IMG/VR virus record: IMGVR_UViG_3300048694_000674
Location: 64,001 to 128,000 of that record
Reading direction: 5' to 3' (one strand)
Length of the DNA: 64,000 bases
From: a virus
In this document: positions 13,877 to 62,472 of the stretch, piece by piece
Numbering within the stretch: position 1 is the stretch's first letter
Layout: each line of letters starts with the position of its first letter
The notes under the pieces: generated by a model
Databases searched by the model: none
The model's input: the letters and a program-made list of their open reading frames with translations, nothing else
What the model was told of the DNA's origin: nothing
Made by a program: the position numbers and the translations under genes

Positions 13877-15093
13877 CATCGATTAAAAAACTAAGCTCTC
13901 CTCAAGTAGAATTTGGCGAATACTTTACAGCTGTATCAGCAAATATTATTCATCAAGAAACACGTGGAGCAAATTCTGTTCAAAATGATGCTAACAATTC
14001 TGCTGTGTTTCTCAAAGATAATGCTGCATATAGTCAGGCGACATATCCAGATCTGTATAATAGACTTGGACTAATTGGAGCTGGTGTTACTACACCAATA
14101 ACTTCTGGTACTGCGGCTACAATTCAAAAGATTGTATATGGGAATGGAATTTATCTTTATGGAGCTTCTGATGGAACTGTGGGGACTTCTACTGATGGTG
14201 TAACTTGGACAACTAGATCTGTCACAACTGTTACTGCTATAGTTGATTTAGATTATGGTAATGGTATTTTTGCTTTTGCTGCTAACCCACAATCAGTAAG
14301 ATATGGAACTTCTACTGATGGCGTAACTTGGACAACACAAACTTCTGATTCGAATCCAGTCGTTGCATTGACTTATGGAAATGGTATATTCATAGTAAGC
14401 AAAAGTTTAGGTGGTGGTACAGGCGCGTCTTTGCAAAAATCTACAGATGGACTCAACTACAGCACAACGGGTATTGCAACTCCATCTTCTTCATCACCAA
14501 TTAACAGTCTTTTTTATGCCTCTAGTGGATTATGGCTGTGTTGTAATCAAGACGCAACACAGTATGTAAAATCTTCAACAGATAATGGAGCATCATGGTC
14601 ATCTTCTGGTACATTAGGTTTTGGTGCATCGACAGCAAAAACATTTGGTTATGGTAATGGTTTATATGTTTTAGTTTCAACAAATGCAACTTTATACACA
14701 TCAACCAATGGAACAACATGGACATCCAGAACTTCTGGTACTGCATCAGCTATTAATACGGTAACATATGGTAATGGTTTATATGTTTATGGAGCTGCTA
14801 GCGGTACATACGTTACATCAACAGATGCAATTACATGGAATCAAGCTTTATCAGTTGTTGGTTCTATTACCTTTTCCTGTTCTTCATACATGAATAGTAA
14901 ATATTATTTTGGAGGCGGTTCTGGTTCGATAACAACATCAACAACTATGACAAATGTTGAATATTCTCCATATTATACTGCCGCTTCTCAATTCTATATA
15001 CCACCACTAACAGAATCAAGTACTTTGACGTTGCAAGCAACAACCACTTTATTATCTTCAGCAATTTATTCAACTTATATAAGAGCAAAATAA
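13873..15093 (+). CDS. Beta-propeller (BNR/Asp-box repeat) virion protein, paralog 2
   Basis: Same repeats and terminal motifs (YSQATYPDLY; FYIP...YIRAK). Confidence 0.65.
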   Translation: MTSIKKLSSPQVEFGEYFTAVSANIIHQETRGANSVQNDANNSAVFLKDNAAYSQATYPDLYNRLGLIGAGVTTPITSGTAATIQKIVYGNGIYLYGASDGTVGTSTDGVTWTTRSVTTVTAIVDLDYGNGIFAFAANPQSVRYGTSTDGVTWTTQTSDSNPVVALTYGNGIFIVSKSLGGGTGASLQKSTDGLNYSTTGIATPSSSSPINSLFYASSGLWLCCNQDATQYVKSSTDNGASWSSSGTLGFGASTAKTFGYGNGLYVLVSTNATLYTSTNGTTWTSRTSGTASAINTVTYGNGLYVYGAASGTYVTSTDAITWNQALSVVGSITFSCSSYMNSKYYFGGGSGSITTSTTMTNVEYSPYYTAASQFYIPPLTESSTLTLQATTTLLSSAIYSTYIRAK

Positions 15094-28817: not shown

Positions 28818-30450
28818 TAGTCTAAAAGGTTATAATGGTAATCTTCTATTAAAAAGATCCAATCAGAATATTGAATGGACTCCTGAATTAGTTGAAGAAT
28901 ATGTCAAATGTTCCAACGATGTAATATACTTCACAGAAAAGTATATGAAAATCATCAACATTGACAAAGGTCTAGTTAGCTTTACACTCTACGAATATCA
29001 AAAAGAAATGCTCCAGTCGATGCAGGAGAATCGTTTTACGATTATTGCTACTGCTCGTCAGGCTGGTAAGTCGACTGTAACCTGCGCATTTATATTGTGG
29101 TATATCATTTTCCATGCTGAAAAAACTGTTGCGTTGCTGGCTAACAAAGGCGAAACAGCGAGAGAAATTCTTGGTCGTGTTCAGCTAGCATATCAACACC
29201 TACCTAAATGGCTGCAACAGGGCGTTAAAGAATGGAACAAGGGTTCTATGGAACTCGAAAACAACAGCCGTGTTCTTGCTGCAGCTACATCATCAGATGC
29301 CATTCGTGGTTATTCTATTAATCTTCTGTTTATCGACGAAGCTGCATTTATTGAGAACTGGGATACGTTTTTTACATCAGTTTATCCTACAATTTCTTCT
29401 GGTAAAGAATCTAAGATTGTTCTTGTTTCCACACCAAACGGATTGAACCATTTTTATTCATTGTGGATCAATGCCAAAGAAGGAAGAAACGGATACAACC
29501 CAATACAAGTAACATTCGATAAAGTTCCTGGACGCGATGAAAAGTGGAAACAAGAAACACTAGCTTCAATGAATTTCGATATTCCTAAGTTCGAACAGGA
29601 ATACTGCGTCGAATTTATGGGTAGCTCTGGTACTCTTATTGCTGGCTGGAAACTAAAGGAGCTCGTTCATCAAACACCAATAACGCATAAAGAAGGGCTG
29701 TCACAATATTTCCAGCCAAAGGAAAGACATGTCTATGTTACTGTTTGTGACGTTTCCAGAGGTAAGGGACTAGACTATTCAGCATTTCACGTAATAGATG
29801 TTACCTCTATGCCATACGTTCAGGTTTGTTCATATAGAAGCAATACAATAACACCAGTAGATTATGCGGCTGTTATTTTCAGAGTTTCAAAGGCATATAA
29901 CAATGCTTCTGTTCTTGTTGAAATTAACGATATCGGCGAGCAGGTAAGCAGCTCTCTTCATTATGATTTCGAGTATGAGTATGTTCTGTTTACTGAAAAT
30001 GCAGGTAGAGCTGGTAAACGTGTCTCCGCTGGTTTCGGTGGCGGTAGCGTAGATAAAGGTATCCGTACAACAAAACAGGTCAAAGCAACAGGCTGTGCTA
30101 TTCTAAAACTGCTGATCGAACAGAATCAGCTGGTAATAAACGACTTCCATACTATAGAAGAACTGGCTACGTTTTCTCGAAAGAAAAATAGCTATGAAGC
30201 GGAGGAAGGTAAACATGATGATATGGTTATGCCTTTGGTATTGTTTGCTTGGTTATCAGACCAGCAATACTTCAAAGACTACACCGATATAAATACCTTA
30301 TTAAAGCTCCGAGAAAAAACTGAGGAAGACGTCCTCAATGACCTTTCTCCTTTTGGATTTGTTGATGATGGTCGAGGCGATTTTATAGATGATCTCGACT
30401 TGCCCCCATCAGGTAATTGGATGTTTGGAGTAGAAAATGAAAAATTATAA
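28801..30450 (+). CDS. gp17: Terminase large subunit gp17
   Basis: RQAGKST Walker A, LLFIDEAAF Walker B, DVSRGKGLDYS and HDDMVM nuclease motifs. Confidence 0.96.
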   Translation: MEIDLSSLKGYNGNLLLKRSNQNIEWTPELVEEYVKCSNDVIYFTEKYMKIINIDKGLVSFTLYEYQKEMLQSMQENRFTIIATARQAGKSTVTCAFILWYIIFHAEKTVALLANKGETAREILGRVQLAYQHLPKWLQQGVKEWNKGSMELENNSRVLAAATSSDAIRGYSINLLFIDEAAFIENWDTFFTSVYPTISSGKESKIVLVSTPNGLNHFYSLWINAKEGRNGYNPIQVTFDKVPGRDEKWKQETLASMNFDIPKFEQEYCVEFMGSSGTLIAGWKLKELVHQTPITHKEGLSQYFQPKERHVYVTVCDVSRGKGLDYSAFHVIDVTSMPYVQVCSYRSNTITPVDYAAVIFRVSKAYNNASVLVEINDIGEQVSSSLHYDFEYEYVLFTENAGRAGKRVSAGFGGGSVDKGIRTTKQVKATGCAILKLLIEQNQLVINDFHTIEELATFSRKKNSYEAEEGKHDDMVMPLVLFAWLSDQQYFKDYTDINTLLKLREKTEEDVLNDLSPFGFVDDGRGDFIDDLDLPPSGNWMFGVENEKL

Positions 30451-33594: not shown

Positions 33595-35322
33595 ATGGCA
33601 GAATTATTTGGATTCGAATTCAAAAGAAAAGTAACAGTAGATAAACAACAGCCTTCTTTTACACCAAAAGATACTGATGATGGTGCAGTTGTTGTTGCTG
33701 CTGGTGGTTCTTTTGGAACGTATGTTGATCTTGATGGTACAGTAAGAACAGAAGCAGAGTTAGTAACAAAGTATCGTGAAATGGCATTGCAGCCTGAATG
33801 CGATTCAGCTGTTGATGAAATTATCAATGAATCAATGTCTATTGATGAAGAAGAGATTGTAAAGATTAATCTCGATCAATTAGAAGTTACCGAAACAATC
33901 AAAAAAGCTATTCGCGATGAGTTCAATAATGTACTAAACATTCTTGATTTCAATCGTCATGCATATGAAATATATCGCCGTTGGTATGTTGATGGTCGTC
34001 TTTATTACCATGTTGTTATTGATGACAAAGATCCAAAGGCAGGTATCAAAGAAGTCAGATATATTGACCCACGCAAAATTCGTAAAATTCGTGAAGTCTC
34101 TAAGAAAAGAGCAATTGGTGGCGAAACTAATGAAGCTGTCATCACTAAGGTTCAGAACGAATATTACATTTACAATGACAAAGGTTTCAACTATGGCAAC
34201 AAATCAGTAGGTCCAACTACCACTGGTTTACGTATTGCCAAAGATTCTATTCTTCATATTACATCTGGTTTGACAGACACAAATGGTACGATGGTTCTGT
34301 CATATCTTCACAAATCAATCAAAGCATTAAATCAGCTGCGCACTCTTGAGGATGCATTAGTTATTTATCGTCTTGCTCGTGCGCCAGAACGTCGTATTTG
34401 GTATATTGATGTTGGCAATCTCCCAAAGATCAAAGCTGAACAGTATGTTCGTGATATTATGGTCAAACACAAAAATCGTTTGATCTATGATGCTGAAAGT
34501 GGAAATATCAGAGACGATCGCAAATTTATGACTATGCTCGAAGACTACTGGCTACCAAGACGTGATGGTGGTAAGGGTACAGAAGTTACAACACTTCCTG
34601 GCGGTCAAACACTCGGACAGATGGACGATGTTCTTTATTTCCAGAAAAAGTTTTTCCAAACACTCAATGTGCCTGTTAACAGACTTAATTCAGATGCATT
34701 GTTTTCATTAGGTCGTGCAACAGAAGTTACTCGTGATGAATTGAAGTTTTCTAAGTTTATCTCGAGACTCCGTGGTAAGTTTGCTTATCTGTTTGTCAAA
34801 ATGCTTGAGAAGCAATTGGTATTGAAGCAGGTAATGACAATCGAAGACTTCGAGAACATTTCACCTGATCTCAAGTTTGACTTCTCTAAGGATAATTACT
34901 TCACTGAATTAAAAGACGGTGAAATTATCGAGAACAGAATTAATCTTGCTCGTAATCTACAGGATATGGTTGGTAAGTATTATTCGAATGAGTGGCTCCG
35001 TAAAAACATTCTTCAACAATCAGAAGATGATATCGAAGAGATGGATGAACAAATCGAAGAAGAAGCAAACTCTGGCGATCCTCGTTGGTTGAATCCTCAG
35101 TTGCAACAAAACGAAATGATGCAACAACAAATGGGTGAAACAGAACAACAGGCATTAGCTTCTGATGAAGATACTGATGCTACCCCAGCCACTGATGAGA
35201 AAAACAAAAAGATTCAGAATGCAAAAGCTCAGTATGATCTGCTTTCTCAAAAGAAAAACAGAACACTAGCTGATGAAGCTAAATTAAAATCAGCTACTCA
35301 AATATTAGCTCGAAATAAATAA
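33595..35322 (+). CDS. gp20: Portal protein gp20
   Basis: YRLARAPERRIWYIDVGNLPK...EDYWLPRRDGGKGTEVTTLPGG. Confidence 0.96.
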   Translation: MAELFGFEFKRKVTVDKQQPSFTPKDTDDGAVVVAAGGSFGTYVDLDGTVRTEAELVTKYREMALQPECDSAVDEIINESMSIDEEEIVKINLDQLEVTETIKKAIRDEFNNVLNILDFNRHAYEIYRRWYVDGRLYYHVVIDDKDPKAGIKEVRYIDPRKIRKIREVSKKRAIGGETNEAVITKVQNEYYIYNDKGFNYGNKSVGPTTTGLRIAKDSILHITSGLTDTNGTMVLSYLHKSIKALNQLRTLEDALVIYRLARAPERRIWYIDVGNLPKIKAEQYVRDIMVKHKNRLIYDAESGNIRDDRKFMTMLEDYWLPRRDGGKGTEVTTLPGGQTLGQMDDVLYFQKKFFQTLNVPVNRLNSDALFSLGRATEVTRDELKFSKFISRLRGKFAYLFVKMLEKQLVLKQVMTIEDFENISPDLKFDFSKDNYFTELKDGEIIENRINLARNLQDMVGKYYSNEWLRKNILQQSEDDIEEMDEQIEEEANSGDPRWLNPQLQQNEMMQQQMGETEQQALASDEDTDATPATDEKNKKIQNAKAQYDLLSQKKNRTLADEAKLKSATQILARNK

Positions 35323-35335
35323 TTGGAGATGAAAA

Positions 35336-35590
35336 ATGGATGATAATGTAACTGTACAGGATTTGATTTACCATTCTTATGAACAAAAGCCTATTGAGTT
35401 TCAAAACACATTTAATACATTAATGTCTGACAAAATTACTGCTGCTATTAATGATAGAAAAATGGAAGTAGCTCAGACAATGTTTAGAGACCAACAGGAA
35501 TATGAAGAAGAAGATCAAGAGGAACAACCTGATACGGAAATAGAATCAGAAACGGATCAAGAGGAAACATCAGATGGCGAAACTACTTAA
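35336..35590 (+). CDS. Prohead core protein (gp67-like)
   Basis: Small acidic protein directly after portal. Confidence 0.6.
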   Translation: MDDNVTVQDLIYHSYEQKPIEFQNTFNTLMSDKITAAINDRKMEVAQTMFRDQQEYEEEDQEEQPDTEIESETDQEETSDGETT

Positions 35591-36998
35591 AGATATTTTA
35601 AAACAAGCGCACGACACTATCAAGGGAGTTCGTCCATCCACTACTGTTGATGGCTCCATTGGTAAAGATCCTGGCGTTGATTACGATCCAAAAGCTGGTG
35701 ACGAACAAGACTTTGTTGCCAAGCATTCCGTACAGAAATGGGATGACCCGAACGGTAATAGCACTGGCGTATTTACTTCTCAAAAGGGTGAAGCTCCTTA
35801 CCAGAAGCAATCCAAAGGTGTTTACGAATCAAAAAAAGATGAGGACACCAAGTGTAATATGTCAGAAGCTGGCTCTTGGTGTCCAATGCACGAAATGGCT
35901 GACTGCTCAAAAATGACCAAGATTAATGAGATTTCAAAATCGACTCTTGGTTCATACATCAAAAAGTCTTCGCAGGATTTGAAAAATATTGAAGCTGGTC
36001 GCGAAAAGAATGCAGGTTATGCAGCGCATGTAAAAACAAATCGCATGCAAACTAATAGAACCAAAGGTATTAATAGAGCTGTAAATAAACTCGCAAAAGA
36101 AGAAGTTGAGCAGATTGATGAGCTTTCTTCTGCTACGTATAAATCTGCAATGCATAAAGCTTCCAACAGAGCTATGTGGGATCCCCAGGGACCAAAAGGA
36201 CCAATGTATAAAAAATACAAAACAATGGCACAAAAGTTCCGTGATAAAGGAATGGACCAGGAAAAGAAAGAAAAGGCTTCTATGAAAGAAGAAGTCGAGC
36301 TCGATGAAGTATCAAAGGCAACACTTGGTTCTTATGTAAATAAAGCTGATGATTCTGTGAGAGCATTATCAAGAAAAACTGTTGTTGGTAATGCTTCACC
36401 AGAACAAAAAAAGAAATTCTATGACAATAATGATAGAAAAATCGATAAAAGATTTGATTCGATGGATTTAGCTATCAAAAAGTTATCAGGTAAAGCCAAA
36501 GTAAATGCAAAAGAAGAAGTCGAGCTCGATGAAGTAATTACAAAGAAAACATCAGCTGGCGAAGTTATTTCTGACTTCATTCATTCAAAGAATCCTAAGT
36601 TTGCTGGTAAGTCAAAAGAAGAACGTAAGCGTATGGCTCTTGGTGCTTATTATTCAAAGCATCCAGAAAAGTCAAAGAGCGTTAAAGAAGATCTTGCTGT
36701 TCCTTTACTCGGTGGTGAACCACCACGTGGTCATTCAGATGAAGCTGCAGAGATGGTAAAGTCAGAGTTGAAAGCTCTTGCTAATAAAGCAATGCATCTT
36801 ATTTCTCAAATGCCAGACTCAATGCATGTCGAGCCATGGATTCAAGCTAAAATTGCACAAGCAAAAGAACATGTCTCAGCTGTTCACGATTATATGATCT
36901 ATGGCGATCATGATAAGCAAGATGAAAAAGAGCAGATGGACACACCAATGACATTTCCAAATATGTCAGTAGATGTTAATACAGGAAGAAACGTATGA
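35574..36998 (+). CDS. Prohead core/internal head protein with repeated modules (gp68 position)
   Basis: Between gp67-like and gp21; EEVELDE-linked basic modules; FAGKSKEERKRMALGAYY and EPWIQAKI motifs. Confidence 0.6.
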   Translation: MAKLLKDILKQAHDTIKGVRPSTTVDGSIGKDPGVDYDPKAGDEQDFVAKHSVQKWDDPNGNSTGVFTSQKGEAPYQKQSKGVYESKKDEDTKCNMSEAGSWCPMHEMADCSKMTKINEISKSTLGSYIKKSSQDLKNIEAGREKNAGYAAHVKTNRMQTNRTKGINRAVNKLAKEEVEQIDELSSATYKSAMHKASNRAMWDPQGPKGPMYKKYKTMAQKFRDKGMDQEKKEKASMKEEVELDEVSKATLGSYVNKADDSVRALSRKTVVGNASPEQKKKFYDNNDRKIDKRFDSMDLAIKKLSGKAKVNAKEEVELDEVITKKTSAGEVISDFIHSKNPKFAGKSKEERKRMALGAYYSKHPEKSKSVKEDLAVPLLGGEPPRGHSDEAAEMVKSELKALANKAMHLISQMPDSMHVEPWIQAKIAQAKEHVSAVHDYMIYGDHDKQDEKEQMDTPMTFPNMSVDVNTGRNV

Positions 36999-37245: not shown

Positions 37246-37914
37246 ATGAAACTTATTACCGAACTTTTTGAAGACGTTCAATATATCGCCGAAGCAAAAG
37301 AAAACGGTGATAAGGAACACTTCATTGAAGGTGTATTCCTTCAGGCTAACCGTAAAAACCGTAACGGACGTGTGTATCCATTGAACATAATGGAAGGCGA
37401 AGTTAATCGTTATATGGATGAGGTTGTTAAACACAATCGCGGATATGGCGAACTTGGTCATCCACAAGGACCACAAATTAACCTCGACAGAGTATCACAT
37501 ATTATTACAGAGCTTCGTCGTGATGGCGACAACTTCATTGGCAAGGCAAGACTTACCGATACTCCTATGGGCAATATCGCAAAGGGTCTTCTAAAGTCTG
37601 GTGCTAATCTTGGTGTTTCTTCTCGTGGTATGGGAACACTTACACCAAGCAAAGACGGATCAATGGTTGTTGGACCTGATTTTCGTCTTGCTACTGCAGC
37701 AGATATCGTTGCTGATCCTTCCGCTCCAGATGCCTTTGTTAAGGGTATTATGGAAGGCGTAGAGTGGATTTATGATCCTGTCAAGGATTCATGGCATGAA
37801 GAAAAATTAGATAATATGAAAAAAGCTATGCATAAAATGACAATGGACCAGATTGAAGAAAGCAAATTTGCTATTTTCGAATCATATCTAACATCTTTAA
37901 TGACTAAAAAATAA
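37246..37914 (+). CDS. gp21: Prohead protease gp21
   Basis: NRNGRVYP, GELGHP, LGVSSRGMG, DIVADPSAPDA. Confidence 0.96.
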   Translation: MKLITELFEDVQYIAEAKENGDKEHFIEGVFLQANRKNRNGRVYPLNIMEGEVNRYMDEVVKHNRGYGELGHPQGPQINLDRVSHIITELRRDGDNFIGKARLTDTPMGNIAKGLLKSGANLGVSSRGMGTLTPSKDGSMVVGPDFRLATAADIVADPSAPDAFVKGIMEGVEWIYDPVKDSWHEEKLDNMKKAMHKMTMDQIEESKFAIFESYLTSLMTKK

Positions 37915-37960: not shown

Positions 37961-39001
37961 ATGACAGACCAAGTAGAAAACGTTGAAGCTATCGAAGAAG
38001 GCACACTAGCTGCTAGCTCTCTTCAACCAGCTTCCAAGCCAGTTGGATCAGATCCAAAATCACGTATCGAAATGATGCTTTCCGTTATCCGTGGTATTGA
38101 CTCAATGCCAAAGAAAGATTTCGTAAAGTGGTTCGATCAACAGCAAGCTGTATTCGGTCCTGGTAAGGATTACGGCGTTGGCGATAAGTCAGCTGCAAAT
38201 CAAGCTACTATCGACATGACAACTGGTAAGGGTCCAAAGACACGCGACGCAATGCCGAAGCTCAATGTTAAGGAAGACGTCGAAGAAATGTTCTCTGGTT
38301 CAGATCTTTCTGAAGAGTTCAAAGACAAGGCAGCAACACTTTTCGAAGCAGCCATATCTGCTCGCATTATTGCTGAACAGGCTCGTCTCGATGAAGAAAT
38401 GGAAGTAAAGCTACAGGAAGCCATTTCTGAAATCAATGAAGAATTAACAACAAAAGTTGATTCATATCTCGACTATGTTGTCGAGCAATGGTTAGAAGAT
38501 AATGCCGTTGCTATTGAATCAACACTACGTAACGAAATTATGGAAGAATTCATGGATGGTCTAAAGGGACTATTCGCAGAGCATTACATCGACGTTCCAC
38601 AGGAAAAGGTTGATGTTATTGAATCACTTGCTTCTAAGATCGAAGAGCTCGAAGGAAAGCTCGACGAACAGATCACAGAAAACACTGAAATCAAGCGTTC
38701 TCTTGTTGATTCTGAAAAGAAGGAAGTATTCGAGTCATTCCTTGATGATCTTGCACTAACACAGCAAGAAAAGTTCAAAGCATTGGCAGAAGGCGTTGAC
38801 TTTGATGGCGACATTGAAGTTTATGCAAAGAAGCTAGCTATCATTAAGGAAAACTATTTTGCTACAGAGAAGAAGGCTCCAGGGTCAACTAATATTGTTG
38901 AAGAAACCTTTGAAGCTGAGACAGATACAAAAAATGTATCCGTTAAAGACCCTGCAGTAAATCGCTACGTAGAAGCTATTTCAAGATCATTGAAAAAGTA
39001 A
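37961..39001 (+). CDS. gp22: Prohead scaffold protein gp22
   Basis: LSEEFKDKAATLFEAA...VDSYLDYVVEQW, acidic coiled coil. Confidence 0.92.
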   Translation: MTDQVENVEAIEEGTLAASSLQPASKPVGSDPKSRIEMMLSVIRGIDSMPKKDFVKWFDQQQAVFGPGKDYGVGDKSAANQATIDMTTGKGPKTRDAMPKLNVKEDVEEMFSGSDLSEEFKDKAATLFEAAISARIIAEQARLDEEMEVKLQEAISEINEELTTKVDSYLDYVVEQWLEDNAVAIESTLRNEIMEEFMDGLKGLFAEHYIDVPQEKVDVIESLASKIEELEGKLDEQITENTEIKRSLVDSEKKEVFESFLDDLALTQQEKFKALAEGVDFDGDIEVYAKKLAIIKENYFATEKKAPGSTNIVEETFEAETDTKNVSVKDPAVNRYVEAISRSLKK

Positions 39002-55903: not shown

Positions 55904-56093
55904 GAACATAGACAAGTTCATCGAATCTCTTGAAGAGATGATTGATGCTCGTGATGATATGTGGGAAGAGGAAAAGTACTCAAACCATAGGCAAATGTGG
56001 AAGATCAAAGAAGAGCGATACCTTCCTGCCAAGGCAAAGCTTCGGGAAGCGCTCCATGACTTTATTGCTGAGGTAATCGAAGAAGATGTCTAA
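55878..56093 (+). CDS. Hypothetical protein
   Basis: GAGG RBS, ORF overlap. Confidence 0.55.
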   Translation: MKKYRQKIENIDKFIESLEEMIDARDDMWEEEKYSNHRQMWKIKEERYLPAKAKLREALHDFIAEVIEEDV

Positions 56094-56152
56094 GTTATTG
56101 ATTTTATTATAGAAAAAAAGTGCTTTACTTATTTCCAAATTTGGCGTATACT
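56090..56152 (+). promoter_or_regulatory. Early promoter (TTTACT-N17-TATACT) with upstream IHF-consensus site
   Basis: TAAGTTATTGATT 56091-56103 fits YAANNNNTTGATW; -35 at 56124, -10 at 56147. Confidence 0.65.
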
Positions 56153-56352: not shown

Positions 56353-56386
56353 GCTTAACCATTAGCCCCAGATCTCGTATTTGGGG

Positions 56387-56471
56387 CTAAGTTATTGATT
56401 TTATTATAGAAAAAAAAAGTTGAAAAAAAGCGAAAAAAGTGCTTTACTTATATCCAAATCGGCGGTAGAAT
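56387..56471 (+). promoter_or_regulatory. Early promoter (TTTACT-N17-TAGAAT) with IHF-consensus site and phased A-tracts
   Basis: Second copy of CTAAGTTATTGATTTTATTATAGAAAAAAA; -35 at 56443, -10 at 56466. Confidence 0.65.
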
Positions 56472-56973: not shown

Positions 56974-57135
56974 ATGATGTTTAAGAAATTCGCTCTTGTT
57001 GCTTTGGTTGGTGGTATCGTCGGCGGAACACTGTCCGTAATCCTGCCAGCATCACCGATATCGGCTTTAGCTATCTTCGGTATTTGTTTCGCGATTGGTT
57101 GGTTCTTCAACGATTTTCTAGATAAAATCGCTTGA
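56974..57135 (+). CDS. Small two-TM membrane protein (53 aa)
   Basis: GAGGAG RBS; two hydrophobic segments. Confidence 0.55.
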   Translation: MMFKKFALVALVGGIVGGTLSVILPASPISALAIFGICFAIGWFFNDFLDKIA

Positions 57136-57160
57136 CTAATATCCAAAACTGCGGTATACT
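57132..57160 (+). promoter_or_regulatory. Early promoter TTGACT-N17-TATACT
   Basis: Shares the ATWTCCAAA spacer with the 56124 and 56443 promoters. Confidence 0.65.
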
Positions 57161-57185: not shown

Positions 57186-57473
57186 ATGAGATTCGACGAT
57201 TACGCTTTTGAGCAATGCGCTCGTGCTGTTTATATCATGAACGATTCTGCACGGGAACTCTATGATTCATGGGAAGAACTACGTTCGTTCATGGAATCTA
57301 TGGCTTATCAATATGGCGGAAACGCTGGGTGCACTCATTTCGAAACTGGTGGTTTCTGTCTTTCGTTCTCGCGTTCATCGGTTGATCGCGAAGATTGGTT
57401 TGTAACTGCATCTATTGAGCCATATACAGCTTTGCGATATATTAAATCAATGCAGATTATGCAGCGCATGTAA
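57186..57473 (+). CDS. Hypothetical early protein, 3' end interrupted by an insertion at 57449
   Basis: Removing 57449-57896 restores ...RYIKSVTNVSLEYA* with TAATG coupling to 57927. Confidence 0.6.
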   Translation: MRFDDYAFEQCARAVYIMNDSARELYDSWEELRSFMESMAYQYGGNAGCTHFETGGFCLSFSRSSVDREDWFVTASIEPYTALRYIKSMQIMQRM

Positions 57474-57896
57474 AAACAAATCGCATGCAAACTAATAGAA
57501 CCAACTGTTGATGGCTCCATTGGTAAAGATCCTGGCGTTGATTACGATCCAAAAGCTGGCGACGAACAAGACTTTGTTGCCAAACATTCCGTACAGAAAT
57601 GGGATGACCCAAATGGTAATGGACCAGATGTGTTTCAAGGCACAAATATAAAGTACTCGTTGGATAAAGAAGCTCATCATGGCTATAAGAAGCCAGAAGA
57701 TAAGAGAGTCAACGAATCAAAAAAAGATGAGGAGACCAAGTGTAATATGTCAGAAGCTGGTTCTTGGTGTCCAATGCACGAAATGGCTGACTGCTCAAAG
57801 ATGACCAAGATTAACGAGATTTCAAAATCAACTCTTGGTTCATACATCAAAAAGTCTTCGCAGGATTTGAAAAATATTGAAGCTGGTCGCGAAAAG
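57449..57896 (+). repeat. Circularly permuted, diverged copy of 35643-36064 (prohead core gene)
   Basis: 57449-57504 matches 36009-36064; 57504-57896 matches 35643-36008 with a substituted middle. Confidence 0.92.
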
Positions 57897-57926
57897 GGTG
57901 ACAAATGTGAGCTTGGAGTATGCCTA

Positions 57927-58139
57927 ATGACTAGCGAATTCTTTTCCAAGGAAAACACATTGGTCGAGTTGAAGGAAGAACTGTATACTCGTTTGAGTGA
58001 TGTGCGTCGAGTTATGGCTTTGAAGTCGGGCGACCAAGAAGATTTCTTGGATGGCTTTTACGAAGGTATCAACTGTCGTGCTGCCAATGAAGACTTCTGG
58101 CTGTCGATGCTACTGGATAAATTGGAGAAATCAGTATGA
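57927..58139 (+). CDS. Hypothetical protein (MTSEFFSKE...)
   Basis: GGAG RBS at 57915 and ATG 57927. The longer 57630 ORF is a by-product of the insertion. Confidence 0.6.
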   Translation: MTSEFFSKENTLVELKEELYTRLSDVRRVMALKSGDQEDFLDGFYEGINCRAANEDFWLSMLLDKLEKSV

Positions 58140-59442: not shown

Positions 59443-59517
59443 CTGCGTGTCGCCTAGCCTGGTGTGGCACTTCGTTTGGGACGAAGAATAACGGGAGTTC
59501 AAATCTCTCCACGCAGA
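59443..59517 (+). tRNA. tRNA-Pro(TGG), no encoded CCA
   Basis: CTGCGTG/CACGCAG acceptor, TT-TGG-GA loop. Confidence 0.88.
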
Positions 59518-60209
59518 CATAAGCGACTCCGATGTATAAATAGTAATGTCAATAAAACTGTTATACATCGGAGTGCAGCTTGTTTTATACGATCTATAAA
59601 ATTACTAACAAAATAAACAATAAATTCTATATTGGGATGCATAAAACCAATAATTTAGATGATGGTTACATGGGTTCTGGTAAGCTTATTAGAAGAGCCA
59701 TCTCTAAACATGGAATAGAAAATTTCACTAAAGAAATTCTTCATGTGTTTGATAACGAACAAGATATGAAAAATAAAGAGAAACAGCTTGTTATTCTTTC
59801 TGAAAACACCTACAATCTTTGTGATGGTGGTAAAGGCGGATTTGGTTACATCAATTCGAATCCAGAAAAGTTTTTAACAGAAAAGAGATTAAAATCTCTT
59901 TGGACATCAGAAAAAAGAATAAATCGTTGGCGGGAAAAATATAAAAATGATGTAAAATTTAGAAATGATTGTTTAGAAAGATCTAGGCATGCATTGAAAA
60001 AATATAAAGAAAAATATCCAAAAAGTGCATTTTTTGGGCGAACCCATTCTGAGGAAACAAAAAATAAGATGCGTAAGTCGAAAAATGCTGGTGAAAAAAA
60101 TTCACAGTACGGAACTTGTTGGATAACCAATGGTCAAGAAAATAAAAAGATCAAAAAAGAAGAACTTGACAAATTTATCGAATTAGGTTATTATAAAGGT
60201 AGAATAATT
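59518..60209 (+). mobile_element. Homing-endonuclease cassette A (hairpin leader, GIY-YIG ORF, outward promoter)
   Basis: Shares ends CATAAGCGACTC... and ...GTAGAATAATT with 61773-62457. Confidence 0.7.
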
Positions 60210-60224
60210 AAATTACAAGAATGA
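59580..60224 (+). CDS. GIY-YIG (SegB-like) homing endonuclease
   Basis: TIYKITN...FYIGMH...YMGSG...E...YNL; NUMOD3-like GRTHSEETK; TTG start. Confidence 0.88.
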   Translation: MFYTIYKITNKINNKFYIGMHKTNNLDDGYMGSGKLIRRAISKHGIENFTKEILHVFDNEQDMKNKEKQLVILSENTYNLCDGGKGGFGYINSNPEKFLTEKRLKSLWTSEKRINRWREKYKNDVKFRNDCLERSRHALKKYKEKYPKSAFFGRTHSEETKNKMRKSKNAGEKNSQYGTCWITNGQENKKIKKEELDKFIELGYYKGRIIKLQE

Positions 60225-61772: not shown

Positions 61773-62457
61773 CATAAGCGACTCTGATGTATAAATAGCT
61801 ATATGTAAGTCTCTTTATACATCGGAGTGCAGCTTGTTTTATACAATCTATAAAATTACTAATAATCTTAATGATAAGTTTTATGTTGGTAAACATAAAA
61901 CTATCGATCTTAACGATGGTTATATGGGTTCTGGTAAACTTATCAAACACGCCATAGAAAAATATGGCTTAGAAAACTTTACTAAAGAGATTTTGCATGT
62001 TTTTGATAATGAAGAAGACATGAATAATAAAGAGAAAGCACTTGTTGTATTATCAGAAGAGTCATATAATCTATGTCTAGGCGGTCATGGTGGATTCGGT
62101 TATATCAATAGTAATGAATCGCTGAGAATAGAAAAGAATAAAAAAGCCATGAGAACTGTTATCACCAAATACAAAGAAAAAATGAGTGAATGGGGTTCTA
62201 AGGGCGGTAAAAAGAAATATGAAAAATATGGTGTTAATGAAAAATGGCTTCAAGCTGGACGAACTTCATTTTTGGGAAAACAACATTCGAAAGAAACTAA
62301 AGAATCGATAGGTTTGAAGAATTCTATACACCAGACTGGATCTAAGAATTCTCAATATGGAACCTGTTGGATTACCAACGGTAAAGAAAATAAAAAGATC
62401 AAGAAAGAAGAACTTGACATTTGGATAGAAAAGGGCTATTATAGAGGTAGAATAATT
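61773..62457 (+). mobile_element. Homing-endonuclease cassette B
   Basis: Paralog of cassette A with the same leader and right end. Confidence 0.7.
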
Positions 62458-62472
62458 GCGGGTCTGGTATAG
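61834..62472 (+). CDS. GIY-YIG (SegB-like) homing endonuclease
   Basis: TIYKITN...FYVGKH...YMGSG; stop codon lies inside tRNA-Gly. Confidence 0.88.
   Translation: MFYTIYKITNNLNDKFYVGKHKTIDLNDGYMGSGKLIKHAIEKYGLENFTKEILHVFDNEEDMNNKEKALVVLSEESYNLCLGGHGGFGYINSNESLRIEKNKKAMRTVITKYKEKMSEWGSKGGKKKYEKYGVNEKWLQAGRTSFLGKQHSKETKESIGLKNSIHQTGSKNSQYGTCWITNGKENKKIKKEELDIWIEKGYYRGRIIAGLV

Follow-up and report, generated by a model that had tools for sequence, protein, structure and literature searches.

A unit-length, permuted gene fragment inserted without homology in an early gene of an uncultivated T4-like phage

Near the 3' end of a small early gene, an uncultivated phage genome carries a 448-bp fragment of a variant allele of one of its head-module genes in which the two halves are swapped and the outer ends are neighboring bases of the source. 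We judge it probable, at roughly 0.6, that this fragment passed through a unit-length circle or head-to-tail tandem intermediate that was integrated without homology, and that the insertion is recent. The homology-free gain of DNA by phages is usually deduced from its end products, which leave the intermediate unrecorded; a unit-length permuted fragment, in contrast, records passage through a circular or head-to-tail form. Mini-circles of T4-type phages have so far been demonstrated only between promoter-plus-stem-loop repeats (PeSLs) and only as free molecules. The insert described here would be a natural integration product, and it comes from a place where circles are unexpected. Taken alone, the insert represents one event, in one lineage known only from uncultivated material, and has no evident function, so its value lies in what it says about mechanism rather than in a new biological system.

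Results and Discussion

The genome and the insert

The window analyzed here is a stretch of 64,000 nucleotides, bases 64001-128000 of IMG/VR record IMGVR_UViG_3300048694_000674, which is linear, 141,393 bp long, and estimated to be 85% complete; positions below are those of the window unless given as genome positions. The gene content of the record—tail tube, portal, a gp67-like ORF, a Peptidase_S77 prohead protease, and scaffold—marks this uncultivated phage as a T4-like myovirus. Clamp loader and regA genes precede a series of small ORFs that have sigma-70-type promoters, and a tRNA cluster comes next. Among the known phage genomes in INPHARED there was no DNA match and no close deposited relative, and the sole protein match was a weak one to Prochlorococcus phage P-TIM68; relatives of the phage come from metagenomes only.

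How is the insert built? It consists of two arms, in the order B-A and both in source orientation, and altogether spans 57449-57896. Arm B (57449-57504, plus strand) is a copy of source positions 36009-36064 and matches them at 55/56 positions, the sole mismatch (57456) falling at a second codon position. Arm A (57504-57896, plus strand) is a copy of 35643-36008, 85% identical overall (E 1e-123), with nine differences in its flanks and a replaced middle. At the closure join, where 36064 meets 35643, base 57504 (A) is common to both arms, making a 1-nt overlap. The outer ends correspond to 36009 (at 57449) and 36008 (at 57896), which are neighbors in the source gene; thus, the insert is exactly one unit of segment 35643-36064, cut anew. 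There is no target duplication at the insertion site (57448/57449) and no microhomology at the outer junctions (target AAATC/GGTGAC, source GAAAAG/AATGCAG). A first-pass annotation of this DNA had given the copied coordinates, the B-A order, the adjacency of the outer ends (36008/36009), and a clean insertion lacking target duplication or homology; sequence comparison bears out each of these, the closure overlap of 1 nt being the only shared base.

The same annotation described a permuted piece. The swapped order and unit length agree with that description, but the two arms are mutually out of frame (+1), and the insert is therefore not a permuted coding unit or a functional permuted gene. It covers source codons 24-164 and carries no whole ORF; a search for inverted repeats belonging to it found none. 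If internal repeats of the tail-fiber type and promoter repeats are set aside, the 141,393-bp record contains no other dispersed repeat that is both long and of high identity.

The source gene and its two alleles

The source gene (35574-36998, plus strand) encodes a 474-aa protein and occupies the position of gene 68, between a gene 67-like gene and the prohead protease gene (gene 21). The order runs from portal (33595-35322) through the gp67-like ORF (35336-35590; phrog_1064), the source gene, and an 82-aa ORF to the Peptidase_S77 prohead protease (37246-37914) and scaffold (37961-39001). The first-pass name, prohead-core gene, agrees with this position, but the protein belongs to no Pfam family, its sole PHROG match is phrog_5709 of unknown function, and BLASTP gives it no similarity to T4 gp68 (E = 0.51); "prohead core" is thus a tentative name, taken from gene order only. 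The Atlas model of the protein is largely disordered.

Two further features of the 474-aa protein can be read from its sequence. It is modular, with the motif KEEVE(L/Q)(I)DE(V/L)S occurring three times and a variable module after each copy; these motifs contain L/I-x-E, which we take to be the cleavage pattern of the T4 prohead protease. A C..C.H..C motif at residues 103-120 is invariant among the aligned homologs.

The insert and its resident counterpart (35643-36064, plus strand; codons 24-164) are two alleles of this gene. As had been noticed earlier, they differ by an in-frame middle: 93 nt (31 aa; GPDVFQGTNIKYSLDKEAHHGYKKPEDKRVN) at 57621-57713, plus strand, in the insert vs. 66 nt (22 aa) at 35760-35825 in the resident gene. 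Related forms of the 31-aa middle occur in many of the homologs compared, at up to 79% identity (P0005, P0009, and P0026), and the shorter 22-aa middle is also found in P0002, P0004, and P0021. Both middles are natural forms of the gene family, the 31-aa one apparently the commonest.

Outside the middle, the roughly 10 differences that had been described as mostly synonymous third-position changes proved to be 10 flank substitutions, 9 at codon position 3 and 1 at position 2; 8 of the 9 third-position changes are synonymous, and the other exchanges Glu and Asp. The chance of at least 9/10 substitutions falling at third positions is about 4e-4. This bias implies that insert and resident gene diverged while both were working, selected coding alleles. 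Arm A has 0 stops in 131 codons. Little change has accumulated since the insertion, and the event is probably recent in evolutionary terms.

Which phage supplied the inserted allele? The first-pass annotation pointed to a foreign, co-infecting phage. The nine substitutions in arm A span 35699-35942, around the replaced middle, and the outer 56 and 123 nt carry one substitution only (P about 0.01). Such clustering would fit a sister-strain donor that differed from the resident by a mosaic patch, and it would fit equally well a copy of the phage's own earlier allele, with the resident gene later replaced over that patch. The foreign origin consequently loses its special standing, and the donor may have been a sister strain present in the same, mixed infection or else the lineage's own earlier allele. 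Searches of 5.8 billion proteins with residues 1-175 of the 474-aa protein and with arm A yielded no donor, nor did a search of metagenome contigs with arm A, and a search of IMG/VR with the fusion ORF described below, the closure junction, and the empty-site sequence brought up neither a donor nor a second carrier lineage nor a near-identical strain with an empty site. The best match across all donor searches was 78% identical. Among metagenome contigs and in IMG/VR, no further contig carries the closure junction, and no free circle was found; in proteins and metagenome contigs the insert is confined to a single lineage. Other contigs contain short ORFs that are related to arm A (P0118-P0121); considered as relocated fragments, these were set aside, since all begin with the gene's usual N-terminus and are thus ordinary or truncated genes.

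The interrupted early gene

The target encodes a protein from a family whose members are 89-108 aa long and have no known function; 18 homologs were compared. As now read (57186-57473, plus strand), it encodes 95 aa: 88 native residues followed by MQIMQRM from arm B and a TAA at 57471-57473, so that the protein ends in RYIKSMQIMQRM. This premature end follows from the insert length of 3n+1. The detached native 3' end, VTNVSLEYA plus TAA after a split Ser codon, lies at 57897-57927 (plus strand). When 57449-57896 is deleted, the reading frame continues as RYIKS-VTNVSLEYA and stops at a TAA (57925-57927) that shares a base with the start codon of the next ORF (ATG at 57927; TAATG). The earlier claim that deletion restores the host ORF in frame is thus correct, and the empty site it predicted is what relatives have: the tail is uninterrupted in 18/18 homologs, most of which end like RYIEAVTNRMDAIREMAA or RYIESVKERLTDIRELAA. 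The restored sequence matches these relatives across the join, where TCG GTG ACA AAT corresponds to GCT GTT ACC AAT (EAVTN) of L006 and to GTGACCAAT of L020.

The last 20 nt of the restored ORF resemble the ends of the relatives' tails, and the restored tail is 4 aa shorter than theirs. In the simplest alignment, the 4-residue gap falls after VTN, away from the join; if VTN is aligned against LTD instead, a 12-nt in-frame loss at the target is possible. For the 30 nt to the right of the insert, similarity to the relatives' tails is weakly supported (P = 0.03-0.06). An origin of these 30 nt from the 3' end of p122, alongside the downstream 70-aa gene, was rejected because the similarity is not significant (P = 0.31).

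Damage to the same region has arisen elsewhere. Comparison of L014 (2380-2420) and L015 with L007 (3255-3320) reveals an independent deletion of ~41 bp that removes most of the C-terminal tail of the early ORF and begins just past RYI, two codons from the insertion point in the window. The 3' end of this ORF evidently tolerates damage.

How the insert may have formed

How could an exact, permuted unit of one gene come to lie inside another? In the mechanism that we propose, a 448-bp segment (codons 24-164) of a closely related allele would have closed on itself at a 1-nt match, giving a small circle or its equivalent, a tandem copy arranged head to tail. This form would then have been opened between the bases matching 36008 and 36009, and its ends joined to those of a break in the early ORF, which lay close to the 3' end and separated the Ser codon from the Val codon. 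This joining would have taken place without homology, and neither would target bases have been duplicated nor any base been lost where the circle opened; a host type II topoisomerase acting by conservative exchange, or blunt end-joining, could each have achieved it. In all, the donor must be broken three times and the target once, and three joins must be made. That the outer ends are adjacent source bases follows naturally from a circle, or from a tandem copy trimmed to one unit, and the lack of microhomology together with the lack of base loss at the opening argues for blunt joining or conservative exchange rather than microhomology-mediated repair. We infer a circle as the most economical intermediate. 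The small circle of the first-pass annotation is upheld insofar as the insert is unit-length, permuted, and homology-free, but a tandem copy or swapped fragments would give the same junctions.

The enzymes responsible would be ones that the record does not encode. Type II topoisomerases mediate homology-free exchanges in vitro, according to work cited in PMC11461880 (Ikeda 1986). In the record, 85% complete, we found no gene for a T4-type topoisomerase II or an ATP-dependent ligase, which led us to reject that pair as the phage's own joining enzymes; there was likewise no match to reverse transcriptase (PF00078) or to tyrosine or serine recombinases (PF00589 and PF00239). The joining activity would thus have to be supplied by the host or be encoded in the 15% of the genome that the record lacks.

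The junctions could also have formed with no circle at all, if a linear fragment of a degraded co-infecting phage was cut once and its two pieces were ligated in swapped order into a double-strand break. This route calls for as many breaks (three donor, one target) and joins (three) as the circle does, and blunt end-joining would account for junctions that lack microhomology. Two genes for Seg-like GIY-YIG endonucleases are located 1.7 and 3.9 kb downstream of the insert; they suggest that break-making enzymes operate in this phage, and nothing ties them to the insert sites. However, only 2/8 combinations of order and orientation produce the observed arrangement, both pieces would have to be taken up with no base lost at any of four ends, and the record holds no recognizable ligase gene. 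We therefore regard the capture of two fragments as unlikely.

Is the arrangement real DNA? The record is a metagenome assembly, and a second allele of the head gene in the sample would explain the variant copy if chimeric library molecules or an assembler error had placed it in the early gene. Several observations make such an artifact very unlikely. No junction of the three has more than 7 bases in common with the alternative path; a k-mer assembler could therefore not have created them without reads that contain them, and an artifact would hardly be expected to yield a piece of exactly unit length that leaves a restorable ORF. Furthermore, the same three junctions recur in a second contig of different length (Ga0466935_000003; JGI sample 3300044297; 110,978 bp), which may come from a related sample and so may not be fully independent. 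There, the same insert and the resident gene lie 21,612 bp apart, as in the window, which speaks against a one-off chimera. The two contigs are identical over 4,425 bp around the source gene; across the 6,288 bp that surround the insert they differ at 4 bases, each of which falls within the 3' end of tRNA-Pro. On two contigs each we find the truncated early protein in its exact form, the fusion ORF, and the resident protein of 474 aa.

Replicative template switching after a stalled or broken replication end, with synthesis running from the early gene to 36009-36064, on to 35643-36008, and back to the early gene, is in our view highly unlikely. T4-type phages do replicate via intermediates of recombination, and one proposal invokes illegitimate strand invasion as a way of adding DNA (PMC2993671). 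However, template switching normally uses several bases of microhomology, of which the outer junctions have none, and it leaves as an unexplained coincidence that the exit, at 36008, lies one base before the entry, at 36009.

The remaining candidates were rejected: a transposon or insertion sequence (no inverted repeats, no target duplication, and no ORF in the insert beyond head-gene codons), a site-specific integrase or integron cassette (no PF00589 or PF00239 match, and no core shared by target and opening sites), a diversity-generating retroelement (no PF00078 match, substitutions involving all four bases, and a middle that differs by an indel), and a homing endonuclease or intron.

Expression and consequences of the insertion

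An early sigma-70-type promoter (TTGACT-17-TATACT; 57132-57160, plus strand) stands upstream of the interrupted ORF, as the first-pass annotation had it; it is a member of the repeated promoter family described below, and the insertion point lies within that ORF, 288 nt downstream of the promoter. Downstream of the insert is a 70-aa ORF (57927-58139, plus strand), which has its own GGAG ribosome site and is in frame with arm A; gene callers consequently report a 169-aa fusion ORF (57630-58139) made of arm A and the downstream ORF. The host ORF, arm A, and the downstream ORF share a frame, with a single TAA (57471-57473) between them. Given an insert length of 3n+1, the host and downstream frames must coincide, and only the frame of arm A is a coincidence, of one in three.

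Does the insert have a function? That it might yield an RNA or a peptide had been suggested earlier, and selection might have kept it either as an early head-fragment fusion with the 70-aa protein or as an RNA acting on the head gene. The early promoter upstream, the lack of any terminator-like site ahead of 58034, the open arm A in frame with the next ORF, its intact conserved Cys/His motif, and an internal ATG at 57748 preceded by GAGGAG can all be cited in favor. Yet the frame match is expected one time in three, the 12-nt spacing of that ribosome site is poor, any RNA would be sense rather than antisense, and the insert is known from one lineage only. As an RNA element it was rejected, there being no Rfam match and an unremarkable fold energy (z = -1.9). 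The suggested product thus reduces to an open frame, and retention by selection is highly improbable.

Most likely, the insert is a functionless scar, neutral or slightly costly. In the early protein, the final 9 residues give way to 7 different ones, and translational coupling to the next ORF is broken. A direct repeat of 0.4 kb also results, 21.9 kb away from the source, and in an actively recombining phage this is likely to be a cost.

The order of small genes around the insert differs among relatives. Five of them (L006, L020, L022, L023, and L025) have homologs of the 70-aa ORF (~53% identical) upstream of the interrupted ORF, in the order p122, p70, X, host ORF, p121; the window has p122, a 53-aa membrane ORF, host ORF, insert, p70, p121. 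Small early genes are thus shuffled between lineages.

Relation to known routes of DNA acquisition

How does the insert compare with circles already described for T4-type phages? In RB49 and phi1, mini-circles of ~400-1400 bp arise by homologous exchange between PeSLs and are packaged in ~1 in 100,000 virions, and their re-insertion at other PeSLs has been proposed, not shown; inverse PCR on two essential genes that have no flanking PeSLs detected no circles (Arbiol et al. 2010, PMC2839356). The insert resembles these mini-circles in its origin from a T4-type genome, in size, and in the proposed re-insertion elsewhere, and its target is likewise a hyperplastic early region with promoter repeats and at least one stem-loop motif. 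In contrast to PeSL circles, it comes from within the coding sequence of a conserved head module, with ends (35643 and 36064) at which there is neither promoter nor stem-loop nor any member of the repeat family. Its closure involved 1 nt and its integration no homology, at a site within an ORF, whereas PeSL circles use intergenic PeSLs, and it holds codons 24-164 only, with arms out of frame at closure, instead of a whole ORF. Of the defining features of a PeSL mini-circle the insert shares size alone, and it lies outside the known PeSL mini-circle route.

The closer likeness is to the illegitimate integration of a circle of the Campbell type, which has the same permuted order, adjacent outer ends, and lack of duplication, homology, or base loss. 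Here, we find swapped arms of the same orientation with adjacent outer ends and an empty site that is restored when the insert is removed; the differences are that we infer the circle and that the record has no recognizable T4-type topoisomerase II gene. There is also a resemblance to non-homologous mosaicism by moron accretion, as represented in PMC2839356 (citing Hendrix et al. 2000), in the homology-independent join, which puts new DNA into a new context, and in survival owing to a tolerant spot. Unlike a moron, which is a gene with its own signals, the insert is a nonfunctional, sub-genic fragment from a phage of the same kind, and its permuted order records the intermediate. The insert would thus be a PeSL-independent, sub-genic, homology-free form of circle integration, itself a known type of event.

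Might T4-like phages regularly shed sub-genic circles from throughout their genomes, even from core structural genes, and might these re-integrate without homology in tolerant early regions of the phage itself or of a co-infecting one, with the product in this case also expressed early as a fusion with the downstream protein? We think this quite unlikely. Were it so, phages would have a route to mosaicism that is general and needs no PeSLs, and its footprints, unit-length permuted fragments, could be sought systematically.

Several repeats of other kinds were seen in the genome. Promoter-family copies lie at 56114, 56433, 57122, and 58277, and an extended consensus (A-tract, GTGCTTKAC ... TATACT) is present at these four sites; further copies occur at genome positions 30093-30195 and 128860-128971. 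The phage has at least one promoter-plus-stem-loop motif (56362-56471), in which a stem-loop of the GGGG/CCCC type (56362-56390) precedes AT-rich sequence and then an early promoter, an arrangement that is PeSL-like. A perfect 30-nt repeat is shared by 56090-56119 and 56387-56416. Outside the window, at genome positions 14286-14499 (G000:C1), two adjacent 106-bp copies are 98% identical, with 2 nt between them.

Within the tRNA cluster are two paralogous ORFs (59637-60224 and 61834-62472) with weak matches, under curated cut-offs, to SegE/GIY-YIG endonuclease families, and one of the two also has a NUMOD3 motif match. All four bases at which the second contig departs from the window fall at 59492-59518, immediately beside the first of these ORFs, and they look as co-conversion at a homing site would.
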